From positions 43,652 through 107,651 of IMG/VR virus record IMGVR_UViG_3300013006_000023: DNA of 64,000 nucleotides; one strand, given 5' to 3'. The position numbers and the translations under genes are program-made. The notes under the pieces were generated by a model that had not been told where the DNA came from, did not search any database, and saw only the letters and a list, made by a program, of their open reading frames with translations. The DNA comes from a virus. Numbering within the stretch: the first letter of the stretch is position 1; each line of letters begins with the position of its first letter. Shown here in pieces: positions 41,982 through 64,000 of this stretch.

Positions 41982-44900
41982 ATGAATGTACTTCCAGAAA
42001 AAATTCGTCTCAATGTAGGCCATCCTGCAAATGTATTAGCAGATTTGACTTACAATTATTCGCTTTGCGCGCCCATCTTAAGTTCAATCACTAATGTGCC
42101 GCTCCCAGGTTACATTGGCTATTATTTTAATGACGGTAATACTACGAGAAGATATGCTGCACTAATATATACTACTCAAGATCAATATATATATTCACCG
42201 ACCAGACAATTAAGCGCAAACAGATGGAATCTAATTTATGGTTTTACATCACCTATTAATAATGTTTACGATACCCACACACATACTGATCCTCAACCTA
42301 TTAATACATCTAGCCCAATTAATAATTATGTAACATTGACTGGTTGGGGATTCACAAGAAATATAACCACACTTTCAGGCAGGAAAATACACATAACTTA
42401 CAATGATTTCAATTGGTATGATATTAATACTGTGCTGGTACAGAATATCACAGGTAATTTTACACAATTCAACGGTGTTTACACATATGCGCCGGGTTCA
42501 CTATCAGGTGTATATGTAAAAGAACTTTATTTGGATCAGTATGGTGTACCATATTATGCAGCATTGACATATGTAAAAGATTTTTACTATGGAAATAATC
42601 TATGGGCTTTCGGTGAAGGGTATTTAGGTTCCTATAGTTATATATTTTCAGCTGCAAATGTTTTTCCAATATTGTCTTCATCTGCAATAGTGCCCACAAC
42701 AGGTTACAGTTATTTTTCATTTCATGGCTTAGATGTAAATCAAAGTCGATATGCTTCTTTTGCATATGATCGCATTCAGCCTACACCCACACCCACACCC
42801 ACTCAAACACCTACACAGACACCCACCAACACACAAACTCCTTCACAGACACCCACGCGTACACAGACACCTACACAGACACCCACCAACACACAAACTC
42901 CTTCACAGACACCTACCAATACGCAGACACCTTCCAATACCCCCACACAGACACCCACTCCCACCATCACCAATGTAGGTGTGCAATCTCTTTCATCACT
43001 GCCTACAACAGATCCTTCATCAAAAACATCTACTGTAGCTTTGTCAAGTTTTGTTATCAATCCAACTGATGATGACATATTTTCATTTCAATGCGCACAT
43101 TATGGCCCCACATTGAGTGGGTGTGAAGGGTTTTCACTATTTTTCATAGATACAACTCTACCACCACAACAAAGATATGATGGTGCACCATTGAGAGGCT
43201 TGGGGTACAGCAGTCTCATACTCAGAGACGCTGGATTCATAAAAGTTTATTTGGGAGTGGAGAATGGTGTGTTTGGAATTGGTTTTGATTCTTCTGGCAA
43301 TTTTGGCTTGAGTTCAGCTGGTGTATTAGGTTATGGCAAACCCATACCCAACAGTGTCACACTCAGATCATCAATAAACAATAAATTTGTTCCATTATAC
43401 AGAACAGAAGACTTATCTAATGAATATTTAGATGAACCCTTCTCCATGTATCAACAGCTAACTGGCAGCCCGCAATTCACAGATTACAGAATACGATTCT
43501 CAAATTTTGGTAAAACAATCTTTTTAGATTTTAAAAACAGAGAAATATTTAGAAACATCTTAAAATATGATTTTGCAACTGCTCTGCCTTCCATCATGCC
43601 ATCAATAGGATTCTCTGCTCTGTCTGGTTCTAAATTGGCTGTCAGAGGATTCAATTATAACGGCAATCTCATTCCATTAACACCCACACCCACCCCTTCT
43701 ATAACACCTTCACGGACACCCACTCAAACTCCAACAACTACCAGAACACCCACACCTACTAGAACACTTACACCTACACCTTCCATGACACCTTCCATAA
43801 CACCTACACCTTCCATAACACCTTCACGGACACCCACTCAAACACCCACACCCACTAGAACACCCACCCCCACTGTAACACCCACACTTCCTGACAACCG
43901 AGTATTTTATGCTGATTTTGCCAACACTTTAAGCTATCCAGGCACTGGTACCCTTGTTCAGAATTTGAAGAGTTTGTCCAATTATGCAACCTTGACTAAT
44001 GGATTTTATCCCATTACCAGTTATGGAGGTGGCATACATGTTATTTCTTCAAATGGTTTTACATTTGATTACCCGGGTTTCACTTGGAATCAATTGGGAT
44101 TGAACAACAACTTCACTGTTAACATGTGGCTGCAATTGAGCAGTTATCCACAAGAATATTTCCGATCATTGTTCAGCAGTGAAAGCTACCAGTTGAGTGG
44201 GTTCAGATGCTTTCTAGGAGGCTCTGGCTCTGGTAGCTTGCAAGGTAGACTAGTCTTTGGTAATGGTGAAAGTTTATCTTCTACAGATTCTCCAGCATTC
44301 GCTGTGCAACCGGCAACTGTGGTGCCTCTCAACACACCAGTCAATCTCACATTCACAGTGGCTCCATGTGGTGGACCTCTTGGAGTAGTGGCCAGTGTGT
44401 ACATGAATGGCATGATGGCAGCATCTGCCTCTGGCAATTTCCGATCACCATGGAACACCACAATCAGACTATTCAGCATTGGTGGCTGGAAACCAGCAGA
44501 GTGTGATTTCTTTTTAGCAGAGTATGCCACAGGAGCACAGCCTTCATGGCAAGTTAAGGACAGATACAACCAATATGCACCTCGCTTTAGACCTGCTGTT
44601 TATAATTATATTACATTTACAGGTGAAATTATTCCAATAGTAGCACCACAAACCCCTAACTATTTAATTGTATCAACAGATGTACAAACATTCAGCGCTA
44701 CTTTCGATTCACAAATACTAGGCATATCAAATAATTTCGATACTAACAATTTTACCAACTGTAACCTTACTTTTAATTACAGCGCCGGTCTATCGGCTAA
44801 TAAACAGGTTGTATATACTACACAAAACGCTACAATTTCTAGTAATTTAGGCAATTTATATACTTTGTATTACACAAATACCGGTTCAATTATATTAGGT

Positions 44901-46550
44901 TTTGCTGTCAGCAATTTAAATGTCCCGCCTATAACAAGCTACCCACCCCCTTCTCCAACCCCCACCCAGACACCTACTCAAACACCCACCCCCACCCAGA
45001 CACCTACTCAAACACCCACACCCACACCTACTCCTACAATAACACCCACTCCTTCTACCACACCGTCTTTGGCTAATAACATATGTGTGTCAGGAGCTGG
45101 AACTGAAGAGGCAAATGGAACTTATGCATATGACCCCAACTTCAATGCCAATCCCGGAAAGAAGGTTTGGTTAAGATTTCAGCCTTTAGGACCCCCCTAC
45201 AGTTACGGTGTGACTTATGACGAGGCCCAGGGTCGGTGGGTTTTAGGTGTTTACTTTGTTTTATCTTTGCAAACTACTCTTTACTCCAACTCTGCTCCCA
45301 ATTCAGTAAACCCACCGCAATCTGGATGGGTTGTTGACTCTGGGACTGTGCCTGCACCCACCATCGCTCATGCAGCATGTCCTACACCCACACCTACAGT
45401 TACACCTACAGTTACACCTACAGTTACACCAACTGTCACACCAACTCTCATACCGCCGCCCCCATCTTACCAATACTATGGCACAGGATCCAATCTCTAT
45501 GGACAATTAGGATTGGGCGACACAACTCAATTTAACACATTCACTGCATTGACTGGCAATTGGTCACAAGTTGCATGTGGTGGCAATCATACCATGGCAT
45601 TGTCAGCAGGTACTAATAACCAATGGTTTGCCGCAGGGTACAATCAATATGGTCAATTGGGATTGGGCAACAGTGGTGCAGGTACCAACAGAAACACCTT
45701 CACTGCATTGACTGGCAATTGGGCACAGATTGCATGTGGTACCTATCACACCATGGCATTAAGTGCTGGCACTAATGCATTGTTTGGCACAGGATTCAAT
45801 GTCAGTGGTCAATTGGGATTGAGCGACACAGTGCAAAGAACCACATTCACACAATTGACTGGCAATTGGTCACAGGTGGCATGTGGTAGCCAGCACACCA
45901 TGGCATTGTCAGCAGGTACTAATAACCAATGGTTTGCCGCAGGATTAAATAATGATGGTCAATTGGGATTGGGCAACAGTGGTGTAGGTACCAACAGAAC
46001 CACATTCACACAATTGACAGGCAATTGGTCGCAAATCATATGTGCTAATGGTGGCGAACACACCATGGCATTGTCAGCAGGTACTAATAACCAATGGTTT
46101 GCCGCAGGATTCAATGGCTCTGGTCAATTGGGATTGGGCAACAACACACTGAGAAACACATTCACTGCATTGACTGGCAATTGGTCACAAGTTGCATGTG
46201 GTGCCTATCACACCATGGCATTGAGTGCTGGCACTAATGCATTATTTGCCACAGGATCCAATCTCTATGGACAATTAGGATTGGGCAACAGTGGTGCAGG
46301 TACCAACAGAAACACCTTCACTGCATTGACTGGCAATTGGTCACAGATTGCATGTGGTACCTATCACACCATGGCGTTGAGTGCTGGTACTACACAGTGG
46401 TTTGCCACAGGGTACAATCTATATGGTCAATTGGGATTGGGCAACAGTGGTGCAGGTACCAACAGAACCACATTCACACAATTGACTGGTAATTGGTCAC
46501 AGGTGGCATGTGGTAGCCAGCACACCATGGCATTGAGTAGTACACTATAA
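41982..46550 (+). CDS. Multidomain putative adhesin/receptor-binding protein: four Thr/Pro linkers, L-type lectin-like, LamG-like, 7x RCC1 repeats
   Basis: TPTPT tracts; EGFSLFF..GLGY..GIGFD (lectin-like); FTVNMW..VYMNG (LamG-like); seven GQLG..ACG..HT repeats. Confidence 0.8.
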   Translation: MNVLPEKIRLNVGHPANVLADLTYNYSLCAPILSSITNVPLPGYIGYYFNDGNTTRRYAALIYTTQDQYIYSPTRQLSANRWNLIYGFTSPINNVYDTHTHTDPQPINTSSPINNYVTLTGWGFTRNITTLSGRKIHITYNDFNWYDINTVLVQNITGNFTQFNGVYTYAPGSLSGVYVKELYLDQYGVPYYAALTYVKDFYYGNNLWAFGEGYLGSYSYIFSAANVFPILSSSAIVPTTGYSYFSFHGLDVNQSRYASFAYDRIQPTPTPTPTQTPTQTPTNTQTPSQTPTRTQTPTQTPTNTQTPSQTPTNTQTPSNTPTQTPTPTITNVGVQSLSSLPTTDPSSKTSTVALSSFVINPTDDDIFSFQCAHYGPTLSGCEGFSLFFIDTTLPPQQRYDGAPLRGLGYSSLILRDAGFIKVYLGVENGVFGIGFDSSGNFGLSSAGVLGYGKPIPNSVTLRSSINNKFVPLYRTEDLSNEYLDEPFSMYQQLTGSPQFTDYRIRFSNFGKTIFLDFKNREIFRNILKYDFATALPSIMPSIGFSALSGSKLAVRGFNYNGNLIPLTPTPTPSITPSRTPTQTPTTTRTPTPTRTLTPTPSMTPSITPTPSITPSRTPTQTPTPTRTPTPTVTPTLPDNRVFYADFANTLSYPGTGTLVQNLKSLSNYATLTNGFYPITSYGGGIHVISSNGFTFDYPGFTWNQLGLNNNFTVNMWLQLSSYPQEYFRSLFSSESYQLSGFRCFLGGSGSGSLQGRLVFGNGESLSSTDSPAFAVQPATVVPLNTPVNLTFTVAPCGGPLGVVASVYMNGMMAASASGNFRSPWNTTIRLFSIGGWKPAECDFFLAEYATGAQPSWQVKDRYNQYAPRFRPAVYNYITFTGEIIPIVAPQTPNYLIVSTDVQTFSATFDSQILGISNNFDTNNFTNCNLTFNYSAGLSANKQVVYTTQNATISSNLGNLYTLYYTNTGSIILGFAVSNLNVPPITSYPPPSPTPTQTPTQTPTPTQTPTQTPTPTPTPTITPTPSTTPSLANNICVSGAGTEEANGTYAYDPNFNANPGKKVWLRFQPLGPPYSYGVTYDEAQGRWVLGVYFVLSLQTTLYSNSAPNSVNPPQSGWVVDSGTVPAPTIAHAACPTPTPTVTPTVTPTVTPTVTPTLIPPPPSYQYYGTGSNLYGQLGLGDTTQFNTFTALTGNWSQVACGGNHTMALSAGTNNQWFAAGYNQYGQLGLGNSGAGTNRNTFTALTGNWAQIACGTYHTMALSAGTNALFGTGFNVSGQLGLSDTVQRTTFTQLTGNWSQVACGSQHTMALSAGTNNQWFAAGLNNDGQLGLGNSGVGTNRTTFTQLTGNWSQIICANGGEHTMALSAGTNNQWFAAGFNGSGQLGLGNNTLRNTFTALTGNWSQVACGAYHTMALSAGTNALFATGSNLYGQLGLGNSGAGTNRNTFTALTGNWSQIACGTYHTMALSAGTTQWFATGYNLYGQLGLGNSGAGTNRTTFTQLTGNWSQVACGSQHTMALSSTL
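42780..42970 (+). repeat. Thr/Pro/Gln coding repeat (mucin-like linker)
   Basis: ACACCC/ACACAG tandem codons encoding [14 protein letters not shown]. Confidence 0.9.
43680..43890 (+). repeat. Thr/Pro coding repeat
   Basis: [16 protein letters not shown]. Confidence 0.9.
44945..45068 (+). repeat. Thr/Pro coding repeat
   Basis: [15 protein letters not shown]. Confidence 0.9.
45478..46540 (+). repeat. Seven near-identical ~150-bp RCC1-type coding repeats
   Basis: Recurrent GGTCAATTGGGATTG, ACTGGCAATTGGTCACA and CACACCATGGCATTG blocks. Confidence 0.92.
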
Positions 46551-46592: not shown

Positions 46593-47864
46593 GTGAAAAA
46601 ACAGCTCAACGAAAAGATATTTATTTCCATTGCTTCATACAGAGACCCACAATTGTTGCCAACCTTAAGAGATTGTATTGCCAATGCTAAGCATCCCGAA
46701 AATTTAGTTTTTGGCATAGCTTGGCAAAGAGATGACAAGGAATCGTTGGAAGAATTTGCCAAAGACAAGAGATTCAGAGTGCTGGACATACCTTACAAAG
46801 AAAGCAAAGGCACTTGTTGGGCCAGAAGCAGCATACAAGGATTGTATAAAAACGAAAAGTATCACCTACAGCTTGACAGTCATCATCGGTTTGTCAAGGA
46901 CTGGGATGAAAAATGCATTGCCATGATCAAAGCTTTGCAAGACAAAGGCCATGAAAAGCCTTTGCTAACAGGTTATATATCCAGTTTTGATCCAGATAAT
47001 GATCCACAAGCACGCATCAATATTCCATGGAAAATGAATTTTGATAGGTTTATTCCAGAGGGTGCAGTGTTCTTTCTGCCTGCTTCAATTGATGAATACA
47101 AATCTCTCACACTGCCAGTACCAGGTCGCTTTGTATCAGCTCATTTCATCTTCACCCTGGGCCAGTGGATCAAAGAAGTGCCATATGATCCATTCTATTA
47201 CTTCCATGGTGAAGAGATAAACCTGGCTGTGAGGTCATACACCCATGGGTATGACATATTTCATCCTCATATTGTTGTGGCTTGGCATGAGTATACACGC
47301 AAAGGCAGGACCAAGCATTGGGATGATATCACTGATTGGGGTCAAATGAACACTTCATCTCATGCACGCAACCGCAAGTTGTTTGAAATGGATGGTGAAA
47401 AGAAGGACATCGATTTTGGCATATACGATTTTGGCAAGACAAGATCATTAGCAGATTATGAGAAGTATTCTGGTCTTTGCTTTAAAAAGCGTGCAGTGCA
47501 ACGTCACACTCTTGACAATCTGTATGCACCCAACCCCAATTCCACATTAACACCAGAAGAATATGACAAGTCTTTCTTAAGAATCTTCAAACATTGCATT
47601 GATGTTGGTTATGACAAAGTGCCAGAAAAAGATTATGATTTTTGGTGTGTGGCATTCAAAGATAAATCAGGCAAAGATGTGTACCGCAAAGATGCCGATC
47701 CAGAAGAAATTAAGAGAATGCTCAATGATCCCGACAAATATTGCAAAGTGTGGAGAGAGTTCAATGCAGAAGAAACACCACACAGTTGGATTGTGTGGCC
47801 ACATAGCTTATCAAAAGGCTGGGCTGAACCCATAGTAGGCTACCTGGGCAATGCTGTAAGCTAG
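46593..47864 (+). CDS. GT60-like UDP-GlcNAc:polypeptide (Thr/hydroxyproline) GlcNAc-transferase
   Basis: IFISIASYRDPQL..T, SKGTCWAR, LQLDSHHRF..DWD (DxH), VPYDP..YFHGEE, YTHGYD. Confidence 0.8.
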   Translation: MKKQLNEKIFISIASYRDPQLLPTLRDCIANAKHPENLVFGIAWQRDDKESLEEFAKDKRFRVLDIPYKESKGTCWARSSIQGLYKNEKYHLQLDSHHRFVKDWDEKCIAMIKALQDKGHEKPLLTGYISSFDPDNDPQARINIPWKMNFDRFIPEGAVFFLPASIDEYKSLTLPVPGRFVSAHFIFTLGQWIKEVPYDPFYYFHGEEINLAVRSYTHGYDIFHPHIVVAWHEYTRKGRTKHWDDITDWGQMNTSSHARNRKLFEMDGEKKDIDFGIYDFGKTRSLADYEKYSGLCFKKRAVQRHTLDNLYAPNPNSTLTPEEYDKSFLRIFKHCIDVGYDKVPEKDYDFWCVAFKDKSGKDVYRKDADPEEIKRMLNDPDKYCKVWREFNAEETPHSWIVWPHSLSKGWAEPIVGYLGNAVS

Positions 47865-47879
47865 TATAAATAAGTACTA

Positions 47880-48662
47880 ATGAACAAGTTTTGTTTTGCT
47901 ACAGAAGCAACATACCCCAATTACACAAAACGCATAAAAGAAAACATTCTGGGCGATTATTTGCATCTGGAGTTGGATAAAAAAAATGTGCCTTTCATAG
48001 TATCCACCAACAGGCCTGAAGATTTTGGAGAATTCAAAGATCACCCCACCATAAAAGTCTTTCATATTGACGATTTACGCAAAGATGCACCTGAATCTCT
48101 TGAATATGAATTGCTCCCTGAGAATCCTGCAGGCATTTATCCAAGCAGATACCCTTTCAACACAAGAAGATTCACATTAAAAAAAGCTGTTGAATTAGGA
48201 TGCAATTCTTGTTATTATTTTGAAGCTGATATCAAGGTTAACCGTGGATTGAATTTTACAAGTGATAGTTTTTTTAATTTCTTAAATGATATATATGCAC
48301 CCAACACTCTAACCACCAACACAACAATTTTTAGATACAAAAACTTAAAACCCGATGATGTATTTAATTTTCACGGTCAATACATTGAAAAATTTGGATA
48401 CAATTTTAAACCTGATCAATATGACACTGTTGACGGCACACTTCAATTTTACATGGGTGAAACATGTGACTCTCTATTAAACTTTTATAACACATGGAAT
48501 GACTTGGCATTATTTGGATACAGAAATGCTGTAAACGGAGGCTATGGCTACAAGAACAATGCACATGGCGTTCTTTCATTTGCCATACCAGCATCAAACT
48601 TTACCTTGAGGGAATATGGTCTCCCATTTTATGCTGATCACCATCCAGATGAAAGATACTAG
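47880..48662 (+). CDS. Putative GT-A fold glycosyltransferase
   Basis: IVSTN.P, YPFNTRRF, YYFEADI (DxD-like); cluster context. Confidence 0.5.
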   Translation: MNKFCFATEATYPNYTKRIKENILGDYLHLELDKKNVPFIVSTNRPEDFGEFKDHPTIKVFHIDDLRKDAPESLEYELLPENPAGIYPSRYPFNTRRFTLKKAVELGCNSCYYFEADIKVNRGLNFTSDSFFNFLNDIYAPNTLTTNTTIFRYKNLKPDDVFNFHGQYIEKFGYNFKPDQYDTVDGTLQFYMGETCDSLLNFYNTWNDLALFGYRNAVNGGYGYKNNAHGVLSFAIPASNFTLREYGLPFYADHHPDERY

Positions 48663-49318
48663 TGAAACTTTTAAGGAAAATTGTAGATAAAATTTCATTG
48701 CATAATGATTTTACCTTAGTAAGTGTGGGTGCCAACAACGGGCTATTTGTTGAAGAATTGGTTTATTTTGACATTCTTAAAAAAGATTGGAATTGCTTGT
48801 TCATAGAACCTGTGAAAGAATCTTTTGATAAATTAATTGAAAATTATAATGAACACTACCCTTTGAATAACTTTAAATATGAAAATAGTGCCATTTTTAT
48901 TGAAGATGGTACAGGAGAGCTAATTACTCATAAGAATGATGATTCGTTTGGCATGTGCTCTTTTTTTCGTCATAAAAATACTAATTCGGTGAGCATACCT
49001 GTTAATTTAAAAACATTTAAAACAATCTTAGATAAACATGAAATAAAACATGTGGATTTTTTAAAGGTTGATTGCGAGGGTTTTGATTATGAAGTTATCC
49101 TGCAACTGCTGGACATGCAAATACTTCCAAAGCTTATTTTATTTGAGGATATTATGCTTGGTGCAACTCCAAATGATGTAATTAAAGGTGTCAGAGGTAA
49201 ATCTGAATGCTTGACTGTGTTGAGGGCATTAAGATACAAAATTATTACTGATGTACCTGAAGTGGAATTTGAATCATCCAATATGTTTGCAGTGAGAAAT
49301 GATATAAATATTGAGTAA
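48662..49318 (+). CDS. FkbM-family methyltransferase
   Basis: VGANNG, FIEP, VDFLKVDCEGFDYEVI. Confidence 0.88.
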   Translation: MKLLRKIVDKISLHNDFTLVSVGANNGLFVEELVYFDILKKDWNCLFIEPVKESFDKLIENYNEHYPLNNFKYENSAIFIEDGTGELITHKNDDSFGMCSFFRHKNTNSVSIPVNLKTFKTILDKHEIKHVDFLKVDCEGFDYEVILQLLDMQILPKLILFEDIMLGATPNDVIKGVRGKSECLTVLRALRYKIITDVPEVEFESSNMFAVRNDINIE

Positions 49319-49320: not shown

Positions 49321-50865
49321 ATGAGCAACAAACTGGAATGTGCAGATTTATTTTCCATATGCAATGTTAGTTTTGCAGATACAGGATTTTACGTAAATCT
49401 ATGCGAATCCACAGAAAGAAAAGCTAATGTTGATGAGCAAATTAAAAAATTTCAAATAACTGGTTTAAATAGATTTGAAGCATTAAAAGATGAATTGCGT
49501 CAAAGTTCTGCAACAAAAAGCCAAAGAGCGGTTTTTGAACAAGCAATTAAAAACGGTAATGATGTTGTCTTTGTGGCAGAAGATGATTTTCACATATTGG
49601 ACACAATAACTCCTCATAATAAACCACGTATTCCCATTGAGGAACATTTATGCATGTTAAAACAAGAGTTGGATACTCTGGATTGGGATGTGTTTTTGTT
49701 TGGTTGTTGCCCGCGATCACATTTAATACCATACACACAAAATATAAGTCTTGTGCACAAAAGCACAGGAGCATGGGCTTACTTAATAAAGAACAAAGCC
49801 ATGCAATATATTTTGGATAATTTCCATTACACAAGAGATTATTTGGCCATTGATGACATTCTACCGTTGCTCAATTTCAGAGGATTCAAAACGTTTTGCG
49901 CTTCACCCATAACAATACATCATGAAGTGGGGTTTGTGTCCACACTCAATCCTCAAGGCCCTGTAAACTATGATAACATGATAAATGGATGCTATGCAAA
50001 ATACCAGAGTTACAGTGATGATAATTATTTGACAGATTATGATTTTGCACGCAACACAACCATAGTAATTGCTGGTCACTTTGCAGATAATTTTTTATTT
50101 TACTTGAGATACTTGCTTCACAGTCTGCCTGAAGCACTTAAGAAATGTAAATTTTTAATTTATTATGATCATGATCCTAGGGTTGATAACCCAGTACTCT
50201 CGTTAATACATTACTTCTACAACCGAAATGACTATCTAACACACAACATTAAGTTTGTTAAATATGGATTAATTGACATATTTAAAACAGCATTGGATGA
50301 TATAACCACACCATATTTTATTTTCTTAGAACATGATTGGGTTTTTCTTGATAAAAATAAAATTAACTTCAATTCACTGGTGAGTGCATTCAATAACAAC
50401 AATTTTGTGCATTCAGTTTATTTTAACAAGGACGATAATAACATGCGCGGTTTTGATATATGCAAAGATGCTTGTGGTGACACAACACCATTTGAGAGAG
50501 ACATCAGAGTCAGTGAGACTGATCTTGTAACAACTTGCCGCTGGTCCAACAACCCTGCAATGCATAGAACAAGCAAATTTAAAGAATGGTATGATGTGCA
50601 TTTGGCTCATGTGCATGGCAACACAGGTCATGGTCAGCATGATGTGGAAGAGAATATGATACCCATATACAGAAAAGCAATTGAAACGTCCAAATGGACA
50701 GACATCAGGGACAATTGGGGAACATTTTTATATGGTAATATTGGTGATGGTCCCTATGTTGGTCATACAGATGGCACCAGAAGATACACTACCACTGCAC
50801 GATCACAGCCAGAAATTAATGGTGATGCATATATTGAAAACAATCCTTTACCGCAGCAAGACTAA
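49321..50865 (+). CDS. Two-domain glycosyltransferase (GT25-like + GT2-like)
   Basis: FYVNL..ERK, RFEA, FVAEDD, GAWAY; then YFIFLEHDW, WSNNP. Confidence 0.75.
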   Translation: MSNKLECADLFSICNVSFADTGFYVNLCESTERKANVDEQIKKFQITGLNRFEALKDELRQSSATKSQRAVFEQAIKNGNDVVFVAEDDFHILDTITPHNKPRIPIEEHLCMLKQELDTLDWDVFLFGCCPRSHLIPYTQNISLVHKSTGAWAYLIKNKAMQYILDNFHYTRDYLAIDDILPLLNFRGFKTFCASPITIHHEVGFVSTLNPQGPVNYDNMINGCYAKYQSYSDDNYLTDYDFARNTTIVIAGHFADNFLFYLRYLLHSLPEALKKCKFLIYYDHDPRVDNPVLSLIHYFYNRNDYLTHNIKFVKYGLIDIFKTALDDITTPYFIFLEHDWVFLDKNKINFNSLVSAFNNNNFVHSVYFNKDDNNMRGFDICKDACGDTTPFERDIRVSETDLVTTCRWSNNPAMHRTSKFKEWYDVHLAHVHGNTGHGQHDVEENMIPIYRKAIETSKWTDIRDNWGTFLYGNIGDGPYVGHTDGTRRYTTTARSQPEINGDAYIENNPLPQQD

Positions 50866-54436: not shown

Positions 54437-55810
54437 ATGAATGCATCTTTTTATTATAGTGACAATTATGTTACCCTGGATCCAGGGTTTTCAGGCATTG
54501 CTTCTCAAGAAGGATTTGTATTTAGTGATATATTTGGCAGTGCCAACATGACATTTGCTTTGTCTGCCAATCCTGCAGGTAAAAAAGCATACGCCTGTGG
54601 ATACAACACCTTACCCACCACCCCTGCCAATATGGTTAGCTACTTGGGCATAGGCGCAACAAATAGACAAACGTATACTCAAATTTATTTTACTCCCATC
54701 TTGTCTGCATACAATGGATCGTCCATCTTTTCACCAGTTTTTACAAAAATCTCTCCCACGTTTCAAGGGGCATTGGGGCAAATAGGCACAGCTCTTTATG
54801 CCACAGGTGATGATGCTGCTGGTTATAATCTAGGCAAGGGCAACCAAAATACAATTTTCACCAGGGTGATGGCAGGTCCCATTGCAGACTTTGAAGCCGG
54901 GTTTTATGGCTCTTTTGTGCTTGACAATTCAACCCCGCCTGTTGTTTATTATTCAGGCTATGGTGATGCTGGTGGATGGAATCCGGCAGGTCAAGGTACT
55001 GGAGCCAATGCCAGTTATCAAACATTCACAGCTTTGGGTCAGTATTTACCAGGATATACCTACGTGAAAGGTGATTCAGCAATGCCCACAGTGCCAGGCA
55101 CTGGCCCACTTTCAACCTTTTTGCCTTACAACAACAATCGTAGCATAGCAGCTAAACCTGCAAAATCTCTTAATCTTGCATCCTGGATGCTAGCTACCCC
55201 ACAGGGCAATATACCTGCTGGGTATGCACCAGGCAAATACCTCATGTATGTAACAGGAAACAATTTTTATGGCCAACTGGGCATAGGGTACAAATATGCT
55301 TCTAGACCTCTGTGGACATGTGTGCTGGGGGTATGTGCCACTAATCAAGATGTGCAACGTGCAGATGTAAATGCAATTTTTCCTGCCTGGTTTACCAAGC
55401 TTTATGATAGCTCCAGTGATCCCAATGCAAGTAGGTGTTTTGCAAGAGGATTTGATACTGATGGAGGCAATAGGTGGTATGTGGCAGGCGATGTTTCAGG
55501 TGGCAAGGGTGGCGTCACTGTAACTGCTTCCGGAAATGTAAGAAAAGCTAATCAACCTTTACACTGGACACCAATTGAATCTGCAAATACAAATCCTGGT
55601 GTTCTTTTTAGCCCTGATTTCGATTCTGTACACATTGCACCTAAATTCACTGCAGCCAGACTGGCCAGAGCCATATACATCACAGGCCAATTCTCTGGAT
55701 TTGGTCTGCCACAAGCTAATTACACCCAATTCACAAGACTCACATCATTAGATTATGATTTCAATATATCTACTACCAGCTTGGGTGTACTTGTTCTTAG
55801 ATCCAGTTAA
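54437..55810 (+). CDS. Divergent RCC1-like beta-propeller protein
   Basis: YACGYN..YLGIG, YATGD..NLGKG, YVTGNNFYGQLGIG. Confidence 0.65.
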   Translation: MNASFYYSDNYVTLDPGFSGIASQEGFVFSDIFGSANMTFALSANPAGKKAYACGYNTLPTTPANMVSYLGIGATNRQTYTQIYFTPILSAYNGSSIFSPVFTKISPTFQGALGQIGTALYATGDDAAGYNLGKGNQNTIFTRVMAGPIADFEAGFYGSFVLDNSTPPVVYYSGYGDAGGWNPAGQGTGANASYQTFTALGQYLPGYTYVKGDSAMPTVPGTGPLSTFLPYNNNRSIAAKPAKSLNLASWMLATPQGNIPAGYAPGKYLMYVTGNNFYGQLGIGYKYASRPLWTCVLGVCATNQDVQRADVNAIFPAWFTKLYDSSSDPNASRCFARGFDTDGGNRWYVAGDVSGGKGGVTVTASGNVRKANQPLHWTPIESANTNPGVLFSPDFDSVHIAPKFTAARLARAIYITGQFSGFGLPQANYTQFTRLTSLDYDFNISTTSLGVLVLRSS

Positions 55811-55827
55811 CTATATAAATAATACAT

Positions 55828-58800
55828 ATGGAGGTATTTAAATTAGATTCGACTAATTTTATTGGGTTGTCCTCCAGATACCCATATGATGACAAACTGC
55901 AGTTCAATGAGAACATCACGTTCACAAAAGAATACATACAAATACCTAAGAATCAGTTGTTTAAAGATTTTAATGACAACAGTATTAACAATTTTTCCAA
56001 TTTAACTCTCACCAACAGCATTCATTTATCTGGTGCAGTGAATATTGAAAAACTTGATTCAATACCAGATCAAAATTTTACTACATACTTTGCAACAGAA
56101 GCTGTAGGATCCATAACACCCAATTCAAAATTTTGGGTTGTGCAAGAACCACCAATTGATGTGCCAGTGGCCAATGTGGCATTAACAGGCAGCTACAGTC
56201 TTTTCAATAACAAATATCTGTTTCAATTTGAGTACTTGAGTGATAAACTTTGCAAAATTTCACATGAAAACAACAATGTAATCCGCTACTTGACTGTGGA
56301 TTACAGTGAAAATCTGTACTTCACTCCAAATACAAATCAAGACAGCTTCTTAGAGTACAGTCCTCAAGTATTTTTATATGTGTATGACAGAGAAAATAAT
56401 TTTATTTTGCTCATAAAAAATATAGATGATAATTTAAAATATGTTTCCTTTTCTGCAGCAACTCAAGGATTATTCTTAAAAGAAGCATTAACAGGTGGTG
56501 ATGCTTCGTTCTCAACGCAATCAGTTTTCAGGGTAATATCCAAAAGCTCCACATCCAACACAACAAAATTCTTTGACCCTTGGGTTAGTTACAATAAAAA
56601 TTTTAAAACAAACACTCAAGACATAAATGCCATCAATAGTTTTGATAACATTAGAACCAATTTGTTGGTAAATTCTGAATATACCAACATTTCATCCAAC
56701 CACATAGATTTTAATATTTTGTCTCTTAAAAATACTAACACCCCAGAAAACCATCAATCCAGAAACAATCCATTCTTCAATGAAGATGAAATTTTCATGA
56801 GAGATTACAAAACTCTCTTCACTGGATCCAATCAAGAGTTAGGCAATGACAACATATCTGTGGGATATGAGAGTTACACAAATAAAATTCTATTAGAAAA
56901 AGACAAAGTAACATATTTTCATGTACCACAAGTGTTTTATCCATTTGAGAGGTTGAATGTTGCTGATTCTGGTTTAATAGAAGCAGGTGCACTTGCAGGT
57001 GATCACCCACTCAAATCTGATAAAATTTTTAAGAAAAAAGCTGATTACAAATACACATCCCACTTTGGTGACACAATTGATGAAAACACCGGTACATTTT
57101 TATGTTCTTGGTTATCTGGCAATACAAATGTGCAAGACAAACCCATCTGGGTGGATAGATACTACAATCCAAAACGCACATCCTTTGTTGCAGCTCTCAC
57201 ATCCAGGGAACCTAAAGTCATAAGATACATCTCCATATTTGAATGCTTAACTGATAAAGCCAAAGAGTTACTTGATGATGTGGATGTGTTTGATAAGCCA
57301 TCAGACTTGATATTTGAAAAAGGCACATACTATGCCTACCACCATTATGGGCCAGAAGATTCCAAGCGCTTCATAGAAATCTTTAATTCCAGTCTGGTCG
57401 CCAACAGGCTTGCCACTTACAAATTTGTTAATGGCTCTGATGTGTATGCAAATGACCCAGTAAATCCTGAATACCCTTTTTACAGTGATAGATATGGCAT
57501 AACCGAATCGCTATCGGCCATACAAAACACCAATCAATTCACATTAATTTTTGATGCATATAGCTCTGATTGGTCCAAACCATTGGGGTATCAATTGATA
57601 GGCAATTATGACTCTGATGGCTTTGGACTTTTCAATACAAACATAGTTACACCCACTCTGTTCTTCTTTACACCCAGCGCCATAAAAATTACTAATGTAA
57701 ACAGTGACATTTTAAACAATGTGGAAATTAATGCACAACCCATTGGTGCCATAAGACAACAGGGGCTCAATGACTATTTTGTTGTGTTCTCTGATAATAC
57801 TATTCGAAAATTTAATATTTCCAATACAGAGATAAGAAAAACAACAAATGATGAAAATTTTCAAATTAAAAATCTGCTTAGTTATGATTATGATGAAGAA
57901 AATGTTTACTTGCTTATAAACAATGCCACACCACCTTCAGTGCAGAATAAAATTTTGAAATATAACATATATGATAATACAGTAATCGATATTACTAGCA
58001 ACATTGAACGCAAAGGCATTGTAACCAACAACTTAAATTTGCTCAAAACCATTAATCTGTACACAGAGAATGGTGTGGATAAGGTGTATCTCACACCAGG
58101 CATAAAGTCTGAAAGAACAGGAACAAATCTTTTCTTTCTGTCCAATTACAATGAGATCTACAGGTGGTCAAAATTTAATACTGCCACCTCCACTCTCTGC
58201 AGCTCGTTTTTTTCAAACACTAAGATAGAAGATTTTAATATCGACTTCGATAACAACATTTGGGTATTATATAATAACAACCAATACGCAAAATTTACAA
58301 CGGATAGACAGTTCATACTTTCCGGTATAATTGCAAATACTGATTATTTAAATTATAAGGTAAAGTTTGGAGCAGATTTTTCAGATAAGAATTATAATAA
58401 ATTCACATTTTTCATAGGTCGCAGCAAAACAAATGCTAACAAATTATTTTTCTATAAAATAGATTCCAAAGGCGATGTAATTCGTGATACAACTAAAACA
58501 TTTGAACCCACATTCATGAATTTTCATGCCATATCTGCCATAGCTGGTAACAAATTCACTGCATCACCCACTTTATCCTCACTATATTCTTCTGGTATAG
58601 CAGTAGGTAATAATATTGCTGCTGCATCTTATGCAAATATTATTAAATTTAATTCAGATTTCTCTAAATGCTTCAATCCAGCCGAAGATGTTTGCATGAA
58701 TATATCTAATGACAGCTTTTTACGTTCCTACATAAATGAAAAATACAGTGAAAATACAATTAATGCCAAAGTAAAATTAATAAACCCCACAAATAGAAAT

Positions 58801-59382
58801 GACGTCATCACAGAAGAAGTGATATACCCACTATCAGGGCTGGACAGAGGGTTCCATAATTTTGCCATAAGATTTGATAGTTATCAAGGCTATTTAGGAC
58901 TGTTCGTTGACGGCCAGCCAGCAGGCTACACATTGTTCACTCCAAGAAAGTATAAATTTAGTGATATGTTTAGCAAGCCCATAATAGTTGGCAGTTCCAG
59001 CTATTCCTTTGGCATACCACTCTTCAGTTACTTGAAATACGATTCATTTCTTGCCAACGATTTTATTGTTAAGAATTTTTATCTGTACAACAAACCACTG
59101 CTTGACTATGATATTATAATTCATACAAGACAAAGCATGAATATAAGGGATATTAATTTTGATATAGCTTGTGGTAGACGCAATTACATTGAAGAGATAG
59201 AAAGATATTTCAAGGTTTCAACTCCTGGTTCAAAGAGTACTGTGTTTGATTTAAATCTAAGAAGCAGCGGCATTAAAGACAAGAACTTGCAAATAGAGCT
59301 GGAAAAGAGAATAGTTAATCTTATCGGTAAATCTGTGCCTGCATATTCAAAATTAAGAAACATTAAATGGAGCAATTCATGA
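55828..59382 (+). CDS. Large putative structural protein with propeller and LamG-like segments
   Basis: TATAAATA upstream; FHNFAIRFD..GLFVDG..IIVG..FYLYNKPL. Confidence 0.65.
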   Translation: MEVFKLDSTNFIGLSSRYPYDDKLQFNENITFTKEYIQIPKNQLFKDFNDNSINNFSNLTLTNSIHLSGAVNIEKLDSIPDQNFTTYFATEAVGSITPNSKFWVVQEPPIDVPVANVALTGSYSLFNNKYLFQFEYLSDKLCKISHENNNVIRYLTVDYSENLYFTPNTNQDSFLEYSPQVFLYVYDRENNFILLIKNIDDNLKYVSFSAATQGLFLKEALTGGDASFSTQSVFRVISKSSTSNTTKFFDPWVSYNKNFKTNTQDINAINSFDNIRTNLLVNSEYTNISSNHIDFNILSLKNTNTPENHQSRNNPFFNEDEIFMRDYKTLFTGSNQELGNDNISVGYESYTNKILLEKDKVTYFHVPQVFYPFERLNVADSGLIEAGALAGDHPLKSDKIFKKKADYKYTSHFGDTIDENTGTFLCSWLSGNTNVQDKPIWVDRYYNPKRTSFVAALTSREPKVIRYISIFECLTDKAKELLDDVDVFDKPSDLIFEKGTYYAYHHYGPEDSKRFIEIFNSSLVANRLATYKFVNGSDVYANDPVNPEYPFYSDRYGITESLSAIQNTNQFTLIFDAYSSDWSKPLGYQLIGNYDSDGFGLFNTNIVTPTLFFFTPSAIKITNVNSDILNNVEINAQPIGAIRQQGLNDYFVVFSDNTIRKFNISNTEIRKTTNDENFQIKNLLSYDYDEENVYLLINNATPPSVQNKILKYNIYDNTVIDITSNIERKGIVTNNLNLLKTINLYTENGVDKVYLTPGIKSERTGTNLFFLSNYNEIYRWSKFNTATSTLCSSFFSNTKIEDFNIDFDNNIWVLYNNNQYAKFTTDRQFILSGIIANTDYLNYKVKFGADFSDKNYNKFTFFIGRSKTNANKLFFYKIDSKGDVIRDTTKTFEPTFMNFHAISAIAGNKFTASPTLSSLYSSGIAVGNNIAAASYANIIKFNSDFSKCFNPAEDVCMNISNDSFLRSYINEKYSENTINAKVKLINPTNRNDVITEEVIYPLSGLDRGFHNFAIRFDSYQGYLGLFVDGQPAGYTLFTPRKYKFSDMFSKPIIVGSSSYSFGIPLFSYLKYDSFLANDFIVKNFYLYNKPLLDYDIIIHTRQSMNIRDINFDIACGRRNYIEEIERYFKVSTPGSKSTVFDLNLRSSGIKDKNLQIELEKRIVNLIGKSVPAYSKLRNIKWSNS

Positions 59383-60992
59383 AAATAAAAGATATAGTGG
59401 CACAATCAGGATTATTATATGATAGAGTTCTCATACAGAATCTAACTCTTCCACATAACATGGACACAATAAAGATTCAACCCAATGACACATCATCTGG
59501 CACTTTGATAAATCAAAAGCTTGAATATCTGTATAATAATTTTCTTTATTTGTATAAAAATACACAAGTGCTTTCTAACATTATTCCTGTTTCATCATAT
59601 TTTACCTCCATCATAGGTGTGACTGCCAATTCAAATGTGCTCAACGTGTACAAACAAAAAACTACATCACAATTTACATATCTCTCCGCTGACAGTTTGT
59701 ATGTTAATATGGACTTAACAAAATCCATTTTGTTTGTTTCCAACAATGATAATAACAATGATTATATTTTCTGTGGATACAGAGGAAATATTAATGCCTT
59801 TAACATCAATGAAGATGCATCTGTCATAAGGAATGTGTTCAGTACCAATCAAATTGAAACCCCGTACAATGTTTATTTTTTAAATATTAAATCCATTGTT
59901 AAGTATAATAATAATATCTTTGTTTTGGATAATTTGAATAATATTTTAGTAAAATATGATGCATCTGGGTTTACAACTGACAATAACATAACAAAAGAAA
60001 GACTAATATATCTCAACACCATTGGAGGTCTTGGCACTGTAACTACCAAAACTGAATTTAATAATCCTCAAAGCATGGCATGTTATAACAATTCAATTTA
60101 TGTGCTTGATTCAGGAAACAGCTGCATAAAGCAGTTTGATGTGAATTTAAATTGGAAACAAACTTTTAGATTAACAAGAGATTTTCTTAAACACTATCCA
60201 ATTGACATTAAAATTGATAATTTTGGTGCAGCTTATGTATTAACAAACAACGATACAATTCTGAAGTACGATATTAATTTTCAAAACTATGAAATCCTTG
60301 ATTTGAAAAACATAAAAACAGGTGACGAGAGTTTTGTTCAACTGTGTTTTTCTGAATATGACAGCAACATATTTTATGTAATTTCAAATAAAAATGTGTA
60401 TAAAAAGTTAGTCAATAATCCCACACAGCTAGTGGGTAAATATCTGTTTTATTTGTACAATTACAACACAGCAGAGAATATCACTTGTTTCAGTTCAGCA
60501 TCTGGCATTGATGGAGACAAAAATATTCTTTTTTCTACTAACAATTCCAAAGGTAAAATTGGCTATTTTTATGACAATTTAAATCTATTTGATATCTTGT
60601 CAATTAATAATTTTGATGTGTACACTTTGCAGGATGTTCTTTTATCAGAACAAGAGTATATACAAAACTGGGTTTTCAATAAGTCGATTTCCAAATTGCT
60701 GGTAAATTTAATTAGACTCAAGGATCAAATAGTTGGCAAATTTCTAGCACAAAGAGACAGCTTTGGCAATATTGCGTTTGATGGAACACGCTACTTAACA
60801 CCCAATGAACTGGAAAGTGTTACTATAAAACAAGATATAAGTTATTTTATAGGTTGCAATGAACCTGTAAGCAATGCAATTGTAAATAGAGTGCTGGAAA
60901 ACATATATCATATTCAACTTGATCTATCAAAAATTCTCAATGCAGATATAACTAATATACCTGCTCTTGATAAAACATTGATATTAAATTAA
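59379..60992 (+). CDS. NHL-type beta-propeller structural protein
   Basis: ATGA coupling; GGLG...[23 protein letters not shown]. Confidence 0.7.
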
Positions 60993-61000
60993 ATACTTCC

Positions 61001-62140
61001 GTGGCTAACCAGTTTTTATTCAAAATTAACAACAGTGCAGGGCTGGAGCCACTTGTAACACAAGAGCCTTCACGCACACCCACACCCACCAGAACCCCCA
61101 CCCCCACCCCCACTCCGTCCAATACTCCCACACCTACCCAGACTCCTACCCAGACCCCTTCACAAACACCTACAATTTCCATAACACCCACGCAAACATT
61201 AACTCCTACACAGACACCCACAAAGACTCCCACGCCCACACAAACGCCTTCCACAACTCCTACACAGACACCCACCCCCACACAAACACCTTCACAAACT
61301 GCCACACCCACACAAACACCTTCCACAACACCCACCATGTCGCCCACCATGTCACAGACACCCACACAAACACCCACCAGCACGCAAACCCCCACGCAAA
61401 CACCCACACCTACTCAAACGCCTACACGCACACCTACGCAAACACCTACGCAAACGCCCACATCCACACAGACTCCCACTCCCACACGCACACCCACACA
61501 AACACCTTCACCTACACAAACGCCTTCCACAACCCCCACCATGACACCTACACCCACACAGACACCTACCAATACTTCCACACCCACACGCACACCCACG
61601 CAAACACCTTCCAACACATGCACACCCACAAAGACCCCTACACCCACTCAAACTCCTTCCAACACACCCACAGTCACCATAAGCAATTCACCCACACCCA
61701 CCAAAACACCTTCCAACACACCCACACCCAGCATCACACCTTCCAACACACCCACACCCAGCATCACACCTTCTAAAACACCCACACCCACTGCAACCAA
61801 TGTGGCTTTTGAGAATTCATGGTTTGCAGGCCCAGGGGAAGGCGGTATATCCAACAGCCCAATTGACGACATGGCTGCATCTGCTGAACAAGATAATGTA
61901 TGGAAAATTTACTACAGTGGCGCATACTACATTGGCAGTACTGAACTAATGTCATTCTCACTTAATGGTGTTGGCGTTATTGGCTTGACTTACCAATCTG
62001 AACGAGCATCTGGCCCAGGTAAAACCATTGCCATAGAGCACAATGTGCCTGGTGGCAGAAAATATTCTTACACTTTGTTAACTGTCTCGCCTGGAGATAT
62101 TGCACTTGGCAGTGCACTAGCACCAGCAACACCCCAATAA
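61001..62140 (+). CDS. Mucin-like Thr/Pro-rich protein with small C-terminal domain
   Basis: About 240 of 379 residues form a T/P/S/Q repeat; late motif 5 nt upstream. Confidence 0.8.
61065..61795 (+). repeat. Long Thr/Pro/Gln coding repeat
   Basis: A/C-rich ACACCC tandem codons. Confidence 0.92.
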
Positions 62141-62168
62141 TGCATCAAGCTGAACATAAATAATATAA

Positions 62169-62474
62169 ATGAACACATATGCATATTCAGTCACAGGCCC
62201 CACAGATGGGTTGGGCACAGTTGGAGGCAAACAAGATGTGGCAGTCACCACGCATTATGATGCATCACAACCTGGAGCATTGGCCACTTTTTATTGGAAC
62301 GGCGAATACATCAATGGCAGTCCATGTGCAATGTACATAAAAGTCAGTCAATTGGCCCCATGGTACATATTGAAAGTGGAATTCAACAGTTCCAGATTGG
62401 GTCAACCTTGGAAATATGCAGTGGATGATAAGATTTTTGAAGGTAAATTCGTAGATTCAACAATAGATTATTAA
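62169..62474 (+). CDS. Small late protein (stand-alone domain)
   Basis: Late motif 6 nt upstream; resembles the C-terminal domains of its neighbours. Confidence 0.7.
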   Translation: MNTYAYSVTGPTDGLGTVGGKQDVAVTTHYDASQPGALATFYWNGEYINGSPCAMYIKVSQLAPWYILKVEFNSSRLGQPWKYAVDDKIFEGKFVDSTIDY

Positions 62475-62484
62475 ATAATATCAT

Positions 62485-62988
62485 ATGGCACAGCCTCCCA
62501 ATTACAGTGATTTGTCCAGAATAGTGGCATCCAAAGCCATGGATTTTAGTACTTTTGAAAACACCTTGAAGCGTGGGGTGGGGCAAAACATAGGCAGAGG
62601 CAACATACCTTATCCACCTCCCACACCCACACCTTCTGGCACACCCCCTCCACCCCCTTCCAGCACACCCACCCCCACCCCCACACCATCTCCAACAGGT
62701 GCATGGTCCATGCTGCTTACCCCTTTTTCTTTCAACAATGGCATCAGTTTGCAAGGATCTTTTGCCAATCAAGCATTTTATTACACAGGTGACTCATTTG
62801 ATGGATTTCCTTACACCACCACCATATTCTTAAATGATGCATACCAATGTGATGTCACATGGCTTGATGACAGAATTGCCAACAATCTGGCTGATTTTGC
62901 ATTTGCTGAAACCAGTGCCAGTCCAAAGTATTATGGCACGCTAGTGGCTGATGTTACTGGTCAAATTGTATATTTCAATCGCTACTAA
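62485..62988 (+). CDS. Late protein with short Pro/Thr linker
   Basis: Late motif 7 nt upstream; PPPTPTPSGTPPPP. Confidence 0.72.
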   Translation: MAQPPNYSDLSRIVASKAMDFSTFENTLKRGVGQNIGRGNIPYPPPTPTPSGTPPPPPSSTPTPTPTPSPTGAWSMLLTPFSFNNGISLQGSFANQAFYYTGDSFDGFPYTTTIFLNDAYQCDVTWLDDRIANNLADFAFAETSASPKYYGTLVADVTGQIVYFNRY

Positions 62989-63016: not shown

Positions 63017-64000
63017 ATGGGACCGTTAAACTACCCTGTAATGAAGGTGTATTCACCTAGTTGCTACATTGGATACACTGGCACAATATCATTACCTTTT
63101 AGTTCTGTAAGTAATTTTGTTACTACAATTATAACACCCCGGCCAGACACTCGTTTAACCTATTTAGTGTATAGGCCAGGTGTTTTTATTCCTGGTTCCA
63201 CATTTACACATTTCCAGCCTGGATCCACATATGAAATTTCATCTTCTTTACCACCATTTGGCAGCTTCACCATACCAGTGTGTGGTAGCAGATTTGAATT
63301 TCCTCAAGTCATTGATTTGTTTTCCGGAAGTACCAACAAAATTGGTACAAATTTCATCACTTACAGTCCCTTTGCAGCTGCTTTTCCGCTGTCCACATTT
63401 GACAGTTTTATTAACTTAGTCTACATAGTCAATCCTGTGGGCAACAGTTCTTACATAGTGTATAGACCTGATAGTGTGATAAAAAACCCTCTTCTCACAC
63501 ATTTTCAACCAGGCAGCAGTTACAATGTGCAAGTGAAACAATCCACAATCTTGTTGCCCACGCCCACACCCACACCTACCAAGACCCCCACATGTACACC
63601 AACAAAGACACCCACCATGACACCCACAAACACACAGACGCCCACTAATACAAGAACACCTTCTCAAACACCTACATCTTCTCAGACACCTTCACAAACA
63701 CCCTCCACGTCACCCACCCCCACCCAGACACCCACTAATACAAGAACACCCTCACAAACACCTACAATTACTCCTACTCAGACTTCTACATCAGCCACTG
63801 TTTCATTGTGTGCCACAGTGTGTGTCACTGGTGCAGGTGAAGATCTTGTGAACACTTTTTATTCCAGAAATGCTGGTATTAACAATGGCAGATATTATGT
63901 AGGCTATCCTAAGTTTGCCGGTTTTGTACCGTACCTGGTGTATTCCAACAGCATATACACCGTAAATGAAGCTGGGTGGGTGATACAAGATGTGACTGGA
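63017..64000 (+). CDS. Thr/Pro-linker protein, 3' truncated by window (absent from ORF track)
   Basis: Hand translation open from ATG 63017 ([14 protein letters not shown]...) to the end; TAAGTA 6 nt upstream; T/P tract about 63556-63795. Confidence 0.8.

Follow-up and report, generated by a model that had tools for sequence, protein, structure and literature searches.

The window analyzed here is the final 64 kb (64,000 nucleotides) of a viral contig, IMG/VR record IMGVR_UViG_3300013006_000023, and carries a five-gene cassette (46593-53244) set among genes whose products bear long Thr/Pro/Ser tracts. The whole contig is 107,651 bp long, is estimated to be ~51% complete, and has a G+C content of ~35%. 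Among its genes are those for a large terminase, a tail sheath, and a gp6-like baseplate wedge, whose nearest relatives are in T4-like cyanophages and enterobacterial T4-like phages. Because these relatives share 33-38% identity, we regard the source as an uncultured, distantly T4-like myovirus; the same three genes bear out a first reading of the sequence alone (the original prediction), which had called the phage T4-like. From 33520 to the window end, all genes have the same orientation and are tightly packed. We propose that the cassette probably serves late, cytoplasmic O-glycosylation of the phage's own Thr/Pro linkers, a reading drawn from sequence comparisons. Genes are named below by their first coordinate in the window. 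The cassette and the proposed substrates are as follows.

41982..46550, + strand: 1522-amino-acid (aa) fiber-like protein, with globular domains linked by five Thr/Pro tracts (224 residues) and a C-terminal RCC1 beta-propeller; proposed substrate 1
46593..47864, + strand: 423-aa soluble GT60/PF11397 polypeptide N-acetylhexosamine (HexNAc)-transferase-like enzyme with a C-terminal beta-rich domain; proposed initiator
47880..48662, + strand: 260-aa protein without a Pfam, NCBIfam, or PHROG match; possible GT-A nucleotide-sugar transferase, a lead only
48662..49318, + strand: FkbM-family S-adenosylmethionine-dependent methyltransferase
49321..50865, + strand: 514-aa protein, N-terminal half GT25-like below threshold
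50902..53244, + strand: 780-aa protein of three domains, namely a TylF-type sugar O-methyltransferase (1-211), HtrL_YibB (~222-500), and GT-A (~504-780)
53279..54433, + strand: 384-aa protein with a 124-residue Thr/Pro tract, immediately 3' of the cassette in all syntenic relatives; proposed substrate 2
61001..62140, + strand: 379-aa protein made of a 16-aa head, a 253-aa Thr/Pro tract, and a ~110-aa C-terminal domain; proposed substrate 3
62485..62988, + strand: 167-aa protein with a 40-residue Pro/Thr/Ser tract; proposed substrate 4
63017..64000, + strand: at least 328 aa of a protein truncated where the window and the contig end, 77 of them in tracts; proposed substrate 5

The cassette enzymes and the Thr/Pro tracts

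The lead enzyme, 46593, matched the GT60 profile PF11397 at an E-value (E) of 4.9e-70 and 237.2 bits (cut-off 21) over profile positions 2-44 and 95-350 of 352, and matched phrog_24687 at E 4e-167. Across 14 aligned phage homologs, with identity down to 39%, residues D95-S96-H97 and H232 do not vary. A DxH motif replacing the DxD of GT-A enzymes is particular to GT27 and GT60, the families that O-glycosylate Ser/Thr of polypeptides (PMC7185993). With an AlphaFold2 model of 46593 (pLDDT, the predicted local distance difference test, 88), the 29 best fold entries were all polypeptide N-acetylgalactosaminyltransferases (ppGalNAc-Ts; Z 19.4-22.1 over 263-296 residues, root mean square deviation 3.4-3.9), whereas other GT-A enzymes scored Z 16.6 or less. 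The enzyme is GT60 by family and nearest to GT27 by fold; profile, DxH motif, and ppGalNAc-T-like fold together bear out its original assignment to GT60. Beyond the catalytic domain, residues ~330-423 (window 47580-47864) form a conserved beta-rich domain at the place where ppGalNAc-Ts carry their lectin domain. This domain is present in phage and bacterial homologs and missing from the most distant ones (loci L040-L042).

We defined tracts as 20-aa windows with at least 70% Thr, Pro, and Ser and at least 25% Pro. By this measure, each of the five genes named in the original prediction (41982, 53279, 61001, 62485, and 63017) is a long + strand open reading frame (ORF) with a Thr/Pro/Ser tract. 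Over the five genes the tracts total 718 residues (38% Thr, 27% Pro, and 9% Ser; 276 Thr and 63 Ser). The remaining 85 kb of the contig held no real gene with a tract by the same measure, the lone extra match being an antisense ORF, and a DNA pattern coding for TPTPTP occurred 10 times on the coding strand versus once for the reversed control. The C-terminus of 41982 matched the RCC1 families PF25390 (E 3e-55) and PF00415 (E 3e-42), and its middle domain (residues 359-561) is kept in relatives, always with Thr/Pro tracts and immediately upstream of GT60. The stalks had been predicted to display lectin and RCC1 heads: the RCC1 repeats were found, but no family search supported lectin heads, and the part of 41982 between tracts 3 and 4 that had been called lectin-like (residues ~641-978; window 44000-44950) gave no Pfam match to E 0.1.

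The cassette itself was found as predicted, within the block of baseplate and fiber genes, with five co-oriented genes and gaps of 0-42 bp, and the neighbors of 46593 are indeed glycan-building genes. None of the five proteins has a transmembrane segment. The largest, 50902, begins with a TylF-type domain (residues 1-211; PF05711, E 5.5e-30) that matched SpnH, NovP, and MycF among PDB sequences at E 1e-17 to 1e-12, and by fold at Z 25.4 for SpnH (a rhamnosyl 4'-O-methyltransferase), 25.2 for NovP, and 24.6 for MycF, over ~201-205 residues. Its second domain matched PF09612 at 50.9-55.3 bits (cut-off 24.1); because the YibB equivalog thresholds are far from reached (67.6 bits versus 264.9, and 43.4 versus 342), we consider it a member of the HtrL family and no YibB ortholog. 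In the third domain, EDDM 605-608 is invariant, and residues 504-780 superposed at Z 15-16 on B4GALNT1, POMGNT1, and GnT-I. A Foldseek search with the last two domains returned double GT-A enzymes (LH3, COLGALT1, K4CP, LARGE1, and Mimivirus R699), with poor superposition.

The middle genes of the cassette are assigned with differing firmness. The methyltransferase 48662 matched PF05050 (E 3e-14, 53.9 bits, cut-off 22.7) and TIGR01444 (E 5e-18, 66 bits, cut-off 37.7); together with the TylF-type domain of 50902, it supports the methyl capping that had been predicted. The N-terminal half of 49321 is a lead only as GT25 (PF01755, E 0.0023, 18.2 bits, below the cut-off of 24); its feature neighbors in a structure atlas carry PF01755, and a sequence search found no usable solved structure. 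For 47880, the atlas neighbors are GT8/GT77-like (TM-score 0.6-0.68), and homologs occupy the equivalent position in three further loci (L004, L008, and L019).

Genes of this kind could also make or modify a non-protein glycan, such as host lipopolysaccharide (LPS), capsule, or another envelope polymer. Clusters for LPS and glycolipids often contain GT25, FkbM, and TylF-type enzymes, the Mycobacterium avium glycopeptidolipid gene mtfC is among the matches of the TylF domain, and HtrL/YibB is located in the LPS core region of E. coli. We nevertheless think an envelope glycan very unlikely, as the cassette lacks membrane segments, an initiating phosphoglycosyltransferase, a flippase, a polymerase, and an ABC exporter, the closest folds of 46593 are polypeptide transferases by a clear margin, and the HtrL domain falls far short of the first YibB equivalog threshold.

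Genes of the cassette and genes for the tracts share boxes that resemble late promoters. Of the 17 start codons in the block, 8 are preceded at 11-16 nt by TAAATA, the T4 late-promoter core. These boxes have the window positions below, and the overall density is 0.75 boxes/kb.

TAAATA boxes: 38838-38843, 47867-47872, 49305-49310, 53268-53273, 55816-55821, 60990-60995, 62157-62162, 62472-62477

The distance is 13 nt for 47880, 16 nt for 49321, 11 nt for 53279, 11 nt for 61001, and 13 nt for 62485. Since TATAAATA is not enriched overall in the window (8 versus 7.2 expected), only its placement before starts is informative, and this placement supports a predicted co-expression of the cassette with the late structural genes. 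Scans for sigma-70 promoters and terminators in the window gave counts at or below shuffle expectation. Boxes so near the starts leave almost no leader, a feature common to the cassette and the Thr/Pro genes.

We suggest that the cassette would act in the host cytoplasm on the phage's Thr/Pro tracts, before or during assembly of the tail appendages. First, 46593, as a predicted retaining GT-A enzyme with a DxH metal site, would add an alpha-linked HexNAc to tract Thr (and Ser); by analogy, this sugar is expected to be N-acetylglucosamine (GlcNAc). Second, glycan extension would fall to the HtrL and GT-A domains of 50902 together with the GT25-like 49321 and, perhaps, 47880. Third, the TylF-type and FkbM methyltransferases would methylate its sugars. 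We infer which acceptor and sugar are used, in what order the steps run, that the Thr/Pro proteins belong to the virion, and any effects on stiffness, protease resistance, and recognition. A hydroxyproline route of the Skp1 type (PhyA plus Gnt1) was not adopted: the prolyl 4-hydroxylase/2-oxoglutarate oxygenase family PF13640 had no match in the 107.6-kb contig, which covers ~51% of the genome, while control genomes matched.

Between substrates 2 and 3 stands a further group of genes.

54437..60992, + strand: three tract-free neighbors (457, 1184, and 541 aa), kept with the block in relatives

These are presumed to be tail or baseplate-distal structural proteins. They gave weak RCC1-like and NHL matches only, and a PHROG search returned no function; homologs of g55828 and g59367 sit after the cassette in relatives.

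Recurrence of the enzyme pair in phages and bacteria

Of 39 viral loci retrieved by means of the GT60 protein, 34 carry GT60 and HtrL/GT-A together, and the pair is also present in four cultured jumbo phages (XacN1, Xoo-sp13, Stenotrophomonas CM1, and RAS14). All syntenic relatives have Thr/Pro tracts in the gene before GT60 and in the gene after the cassette. Between the pair, relatives carry NodU/CmcH-type carbamoyltransferases, GT10-like, GT34/GT77-like, and FkbM enzymes, a rhamnosyl O-methyltransferase, or extra HtrL copies. Judged from gene content, the locus behaves as a glycan island with fixed ends (GT60 and HtrL/GT-A) and a swapped middle. Since the middle is swapped among tailoring enzymes, different phages should display different glycans. 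In two genomes of one sub-clade (G001:C1:2159-3028 and G008:C1:2053-2934), GT60 lies near the contig start, ~30 kb from the tail-fiber block, and the Thr/Pro fiber genes stay put; from this distance, we take the cassette to be mobile within the genomes of that sub-clade.

The XacN1 pair (ORF334 and ORF330) is ~4 kb apart and shares 48% (GT60) and 41% (HtrL/GT-A) identity with its window homologs. It directly follows baseplate wedge genes and a gene for a 3313-aa protein with a Pro/Thr tract, and the XacN1 genome has 29 TPTPTP sites, in at least a dozen genes, versus 0 in the control. Examples of XacN1 proteins with Thr/Pro tracts are ORF325, ORF232-237, ORF372, and ORF384. Virions of XacN1 show glycoproteins that are positive in the periodic acid-Schiff stain, and the authors proposed that ORF328 and ORF334 are responsible, without noting the Thr/Pro tracts (PMC5852040).

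For a sample of the wider clade, we collected 79 loci through an alignment of the structural neighbor g38849 and tested whole records for PF11397 and the TPTPTP pattern; the alignment was required, as a single-sequence search with g38849 reached one near-identical contig only. Every GT60-positive whole record tested was Thr/Pro-positive, including one (G022) whose fetched locus alone seemed tract-free. Conversely, all 17 records without the TPTPTP pattern lacked GT60, one of them 193 kb long and 88% complete. Ten records of the clade, all 8-61% complete, have tracts and no GT60 in the available sequence, and the three tract-bearing records that offer enough sequence have their GT60 at another place on the contig. 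A candidate GT60-positive, tract-free phage (G044, 98% complete) was rejected, as five of its genes carry Thr/Pro(Ser) tracts that the TPTPTP pattern had missed; the DNA pattern therefore under-detects tracts. Outside the clade, other, unrelated GT60-positive records also have TPTPTP sites. Starting from tracts, 7 of 26 arbitrarily sampled Thr/Pro-positive viral records carry PF11397, versus only 4 of 50,697 cultured phage records. GT60 implies tracts; tracts do not imply GT60. Within the clade, two records near-identical by g38849 differ in their tracts: G025 (L110) has 38 TPTPTP sites beyond its fetched locus and the 116-kb G026 none (G024 and G026 correspond to L108 and L111). From this difference, Thr/Pro-tract genes can come and go between very close relatives.

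An alignment search found 578 relatives in bacterial genomes, and the HtrL/GT-A gene adjoins GT60 in 41 of the 80 bacterial loci kept. Genes with a Thr/Pro tract of at least 40 residues number 27 in the 433 kb within 3 kb of the pair, against 4 in the 490 kb at 3-8 kb, which is a 7-8-fold higher density near the pair (binomial p 5e-6) across at least eight phyla. The lineages include Saprospiraceae, Cytophagales, Gemmatimonadaceae, Vicinamibacterales, Bryobacteraceae, Halieaceae, Alphaproteobacteria, Acidimicrobiaceae, and Verrucomicrobia. Because Thr/Pro genes cluster at the pair in bacterial chromosomes, hitch-hiking with tail fibers cannot explain the bacterial pairing. The association that the original prediction had asked to see is thus strong in the direction from GT60 to tracts, in phages and independently in bacteria. 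A twin-arginine motif precedes the tract in 16 of 34 bacterial Thr/Pro ORFs versus 104 of 1865 other ORFs, and several of these proteins also have a W-x-KP-x-I segment. By their sequence, they look like an undescribed system of cytoplasmic glycosylation followed by twin-arginine translocation (Tat) export.

Eight small bacterial proteins encoded beside the pair are built alike, with a long Thr/Pro tract between a twin-arginine leader and a short tail.

L136:6513-7694, - strand: small bacterial Thr/Pro protein
L175:6648-7628, - strand: small bacterial Thr/Pro protein
L183:4757-5482, + strand: small bacterial Thr/Pro protein
L192:4801-5463, + strand: small bacterial Thr/Pro protein
L162:2162-3076, + strand: small bacterial Thr/Pro protein
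L165:2497-3021, + strand: small bacterial Thr/Pro protein
L177:9494-10129, + strand: small bacterial Thr/Pro protein
L181:9488-10249, + strand: small bacterial Thr/Pro protein

The W-x-KP-x-I segment after the twin-arginine motif is common to four of them. Their tails resemble the C-terminal domain of type IX secretion substrates in L136 and a hydrophobic-plus-basic anchor in L183 and L192.

In a GT60 tree, phage and bacterial copies interleave, and supported branches force at least six switches between them. The clade of the window adjoins Bacteroidota and the XacN1 copy falls among betaproteobacteria; given these separate bacterial affinities, phages acquired GT60 more than once. Seven loci (L131-L134, L146, L160, and L169) on short, low-G+C contigs in metagenome-assembled genomes (Proteobacteria, Melainabacteria, Gemmatimonadota, and others) branch within the phage GT60 clade, and L160 also encodes homologs of the phage structural genes g55828 and g59367. 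These are probably phage contigs mis-binned into bacterial genomes.

We hold, with belief and doubt in equal measure, a wider proposal: GT60 and HtrL/GT-A would be the central pair of a mucin-type O-glycosylation system that is widespread in prokaryotes and undescribed. Bacteria of many phyla would glycosylate Thr/Pro-repeat proteins in the cytoplasm and export them by Tat (with a twin-arginine/W-x-KP leader). Phages, having captured the module at least twice, would coat the Thr/Pro stalks of their own tail appendages with phage-specific, methylated or carbamoylated glycans as a viral glycocalyx.

The bacterial pairing also bears on the target of the phage enzymes. Since bacteria carry the pair next to Tat-leader Thr/Pro proteins, a host substrate plausibly exists, and phage genes have been exchanged with bacteria several times. 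The cassette could then glycosylate Tat-exported Thr/Pro surface proteins of the host or change the glycan on them, for example to block superinfection or to modify the cell surface, with the phage tracts as bystanders or mimics. We rate this as unlikely: five genes around the cassette give the phage 718 tract residues of its own, tracts accompany GT60 in all GT60-positive phages, and the late structural block, with late-promoter-like boxes common to the cassette and the Thr/Pro genes, would be late for reshaping a host surface.

Counter-evidence and alternative readings

Several results weigh against glycosylation of the phage's own linkers. First, sequence and profile searches with 46593 reached no usable solved structure, and the solved GT60 structure, Gnt1, is not among the listed fold matches of its model. 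Second, the whole-protein fold search with 50902 was dominated by the methyltransferase domain and gave no clear fold for the HtrL domain. Third, the Thr/Pro proteins matched no known tail-fiber family, their virion location being predicted from gene position. Fourth, the only chemistry is the Schiff stain of XacN1, which identifies neither the stained proteins nor the responsible enzyme.

A fifth group of results concerns the association itself. One clade record (G011; 129 kb, 61% complete) has tracts and no GT60. On the g38849 tree the two traits are clumped and change together ~4-5 times; with so few changes, shared ancestry explains much of the within-clade association, and an independent-pairs test on this tree had too few contrasts for significance and no power. 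None of six Thr/Pro-positive records that are at least 90% complete carries GT60. Because such complete phages exist, Thr/Pro linkers do not need a GT60 enzyme. The original prediction had named related phages that keep the tracts without the cluster as a sign against it; these six provide that sign in part, at a distance, but no sufficiently complete close relative was found to do so.

These results suit a reading in which the tracts are plain flexible linkers and GT60 travels with them through a mobile, fast-evolving fiber region or by ancestry, the more so as Thr/Pro tracts are common in viral contigs (among the matches listed). The chance that it is right seems small to us. The pairing recurs where GT60 has a different origin (XacN1) and, tightly clustered, in bacterial chromosomes of many phyla, and the two sub-clade genomes with a displaced GT60 (G001 and G008) keep both traits despite the ~30 kb between them.

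The last counter-evidence comes from the third domain of 50902, which has a weak likeness to phage DNA glucosyltransferases (phrog_842, E 1e-5, residues 556-631 only) and to TET-associated glycosyltransferase (TAGT; PF20691, E 5e-4, 20.6 bits, below the cut-off of 27.5). The first likeness is to a beta-glucosyl-hydroxymethylcytosine alpha-glucosyltransferase, and the phage is T4-like, so that the cassette might glycosylate hypermodified bases of phage DNA against restriction, as in T-even phages. We consider this highly improbable, given that the pair adjoins exported Thr/Pro proteins in bacterial chromosomes and that the cassette occupies a late tail position, not one among replication genes. 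A thymidylate-synthase-family hydroxymethylase (PF00303) was found neither in the contig nor in five further records positive for GT60, of which one is 98% complete. Searches for TET/JBP, run without a positive control, gave no match in the same sequences. With no hydroxymethylase found, and with the bacterial context, the DNA-modification reading was rejected. We thus favor O-glycosylation of the phage's own Thr/Pro linkers, at the strength given at the outset.

Relation to known glycosylation systems

Two groups of eukaryotic enzymes are closest to 46593. The protist GT60 polypeptide alpha-GlcNAc-transferases (Gnt1 of Dictyostelium and Toxoplasma, acting on Skp1 hydroxyproline; the Dictyostelium Golgi enzyme; and the Trypanosoma cruzi mucin enzyme) share its family profile and DxH motif. 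Like Gnt1, 46593 is soluble, and the Thr/Pro-rich context of its proposed acceptors is like that of T. cruzi mucins; unlike the protist enzymes, it is phage-encoded, would act, if active, in the bacterial cytoplasm, has an extra C-terminal beta-rich domain, and is paired with an HtrL plus GT-A protein that protists lack. The GT27 ppGalNAc-Ts of animals and apicomplexans, which initiate mucin-type glycans, provide the closest solved folds and have in common the DxH motif and dense Ser/Thr/Pro acceptor tracts. However, they share only 12-18% identity with 46593, belong to another CAZy family, and reside in the Golgi as type II membrane proteins that carry a ricin-type lectin domain, whereas 46593 is soluble.

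The ORF334-ORF330 cluster of XacN1 is the closest published case, with a homologous pair near baseplate wedge genes and virions stained for glycoprotein. XacN1 differs in being a jumbo, Rak2-like phage and not T4-like, in the separate bacterial affinity of its GT60, in a carbamoyltransferase in the middle of the cluster, and in its short linker tracts, which are distributed among at least a dozen genes, unlike the long tracts of the window. Among mycobacteriophages, glycosyltransferases reportedly decorate the phages' own structural proteins in the host cytoplasm (Freeman et al. in 2023). Their glycans reportedly lie at the C-termini of capsid and tail-tube subunits, whereas the proposed acceptors in the window are long internal Thr/Pro linkers with a GT60 initiator. 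Virion glycosylation by mycobacteriophage enzymes is established, as cited in PMC12619734.

The chlorovirus PBCV-1 proteins A064R and A111/114R are soluble multidomain enzymes with two glycosyltransferase domains and a sugar methyltransferase that caps the glycan (PMC7826918). The three-domain logic of 50902 is similar, but its methyltransferase comes first (the reverse order) and its domains belong to other families, and PBCV-1, a eukaryotic virus, has its glycans N-linked to the capsid protein. In the serine-rich repeat adhesins of Gram-positive bacteria, GtfA/GtfB and extension transferases carry out a stepwise, O-GlcNAc-initiated glycosylation of long, repetitive Ser/Thr tracts in the cytoplasm, followed by accessory Sec export. 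The bacterial relatives of the cassette look analogous, with Tat in place of accessory Sec; the adhesin systems differ in their GT-B (GT4) heterodimeric initiator, in Ser-rich and not Thr/Pro repeats, and in having no homology to the cassette.

In the literature searched for GT60/PF11397 with phage or bacteria, a pairing with Thr/Pro tracts is not described, which agrees with the novelty claimed originally; that claim is narrowed by the XacN1 paper, which had already suggested that a GT60 homolog makes virion glycoproteins. To our knowledge, glycosylated phage virions come from very few systems. We are aware of no pathway, in phages or in bacteria, whose first step is carried out by a GT60/ppGalNAc-T-like polypeptide transferase acting on mucin-like Thr/Pro tracts.

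Cultured organisms that lend themselves to a direct test of the proposal include phage XacN1 and, among bacteria, the GT60 carrier Jiulongibacter sediminis JN14-9 (locus L153). If true, mucin-type O-glycosylation, thought of as eukaryotic, would be common to many bacteria and to the viruses that infect them, and Tat would be an export route for proteins glycosylated in the cytoplasm. The very common Thr/Pro linkers of environmental phage fibers would be explained as glycan carriers, and the swappable middle of the cassette would let phages diversify their surface at a second level, by enzymes, with possible effects on adsorption, resistance to proteases, and recognition.

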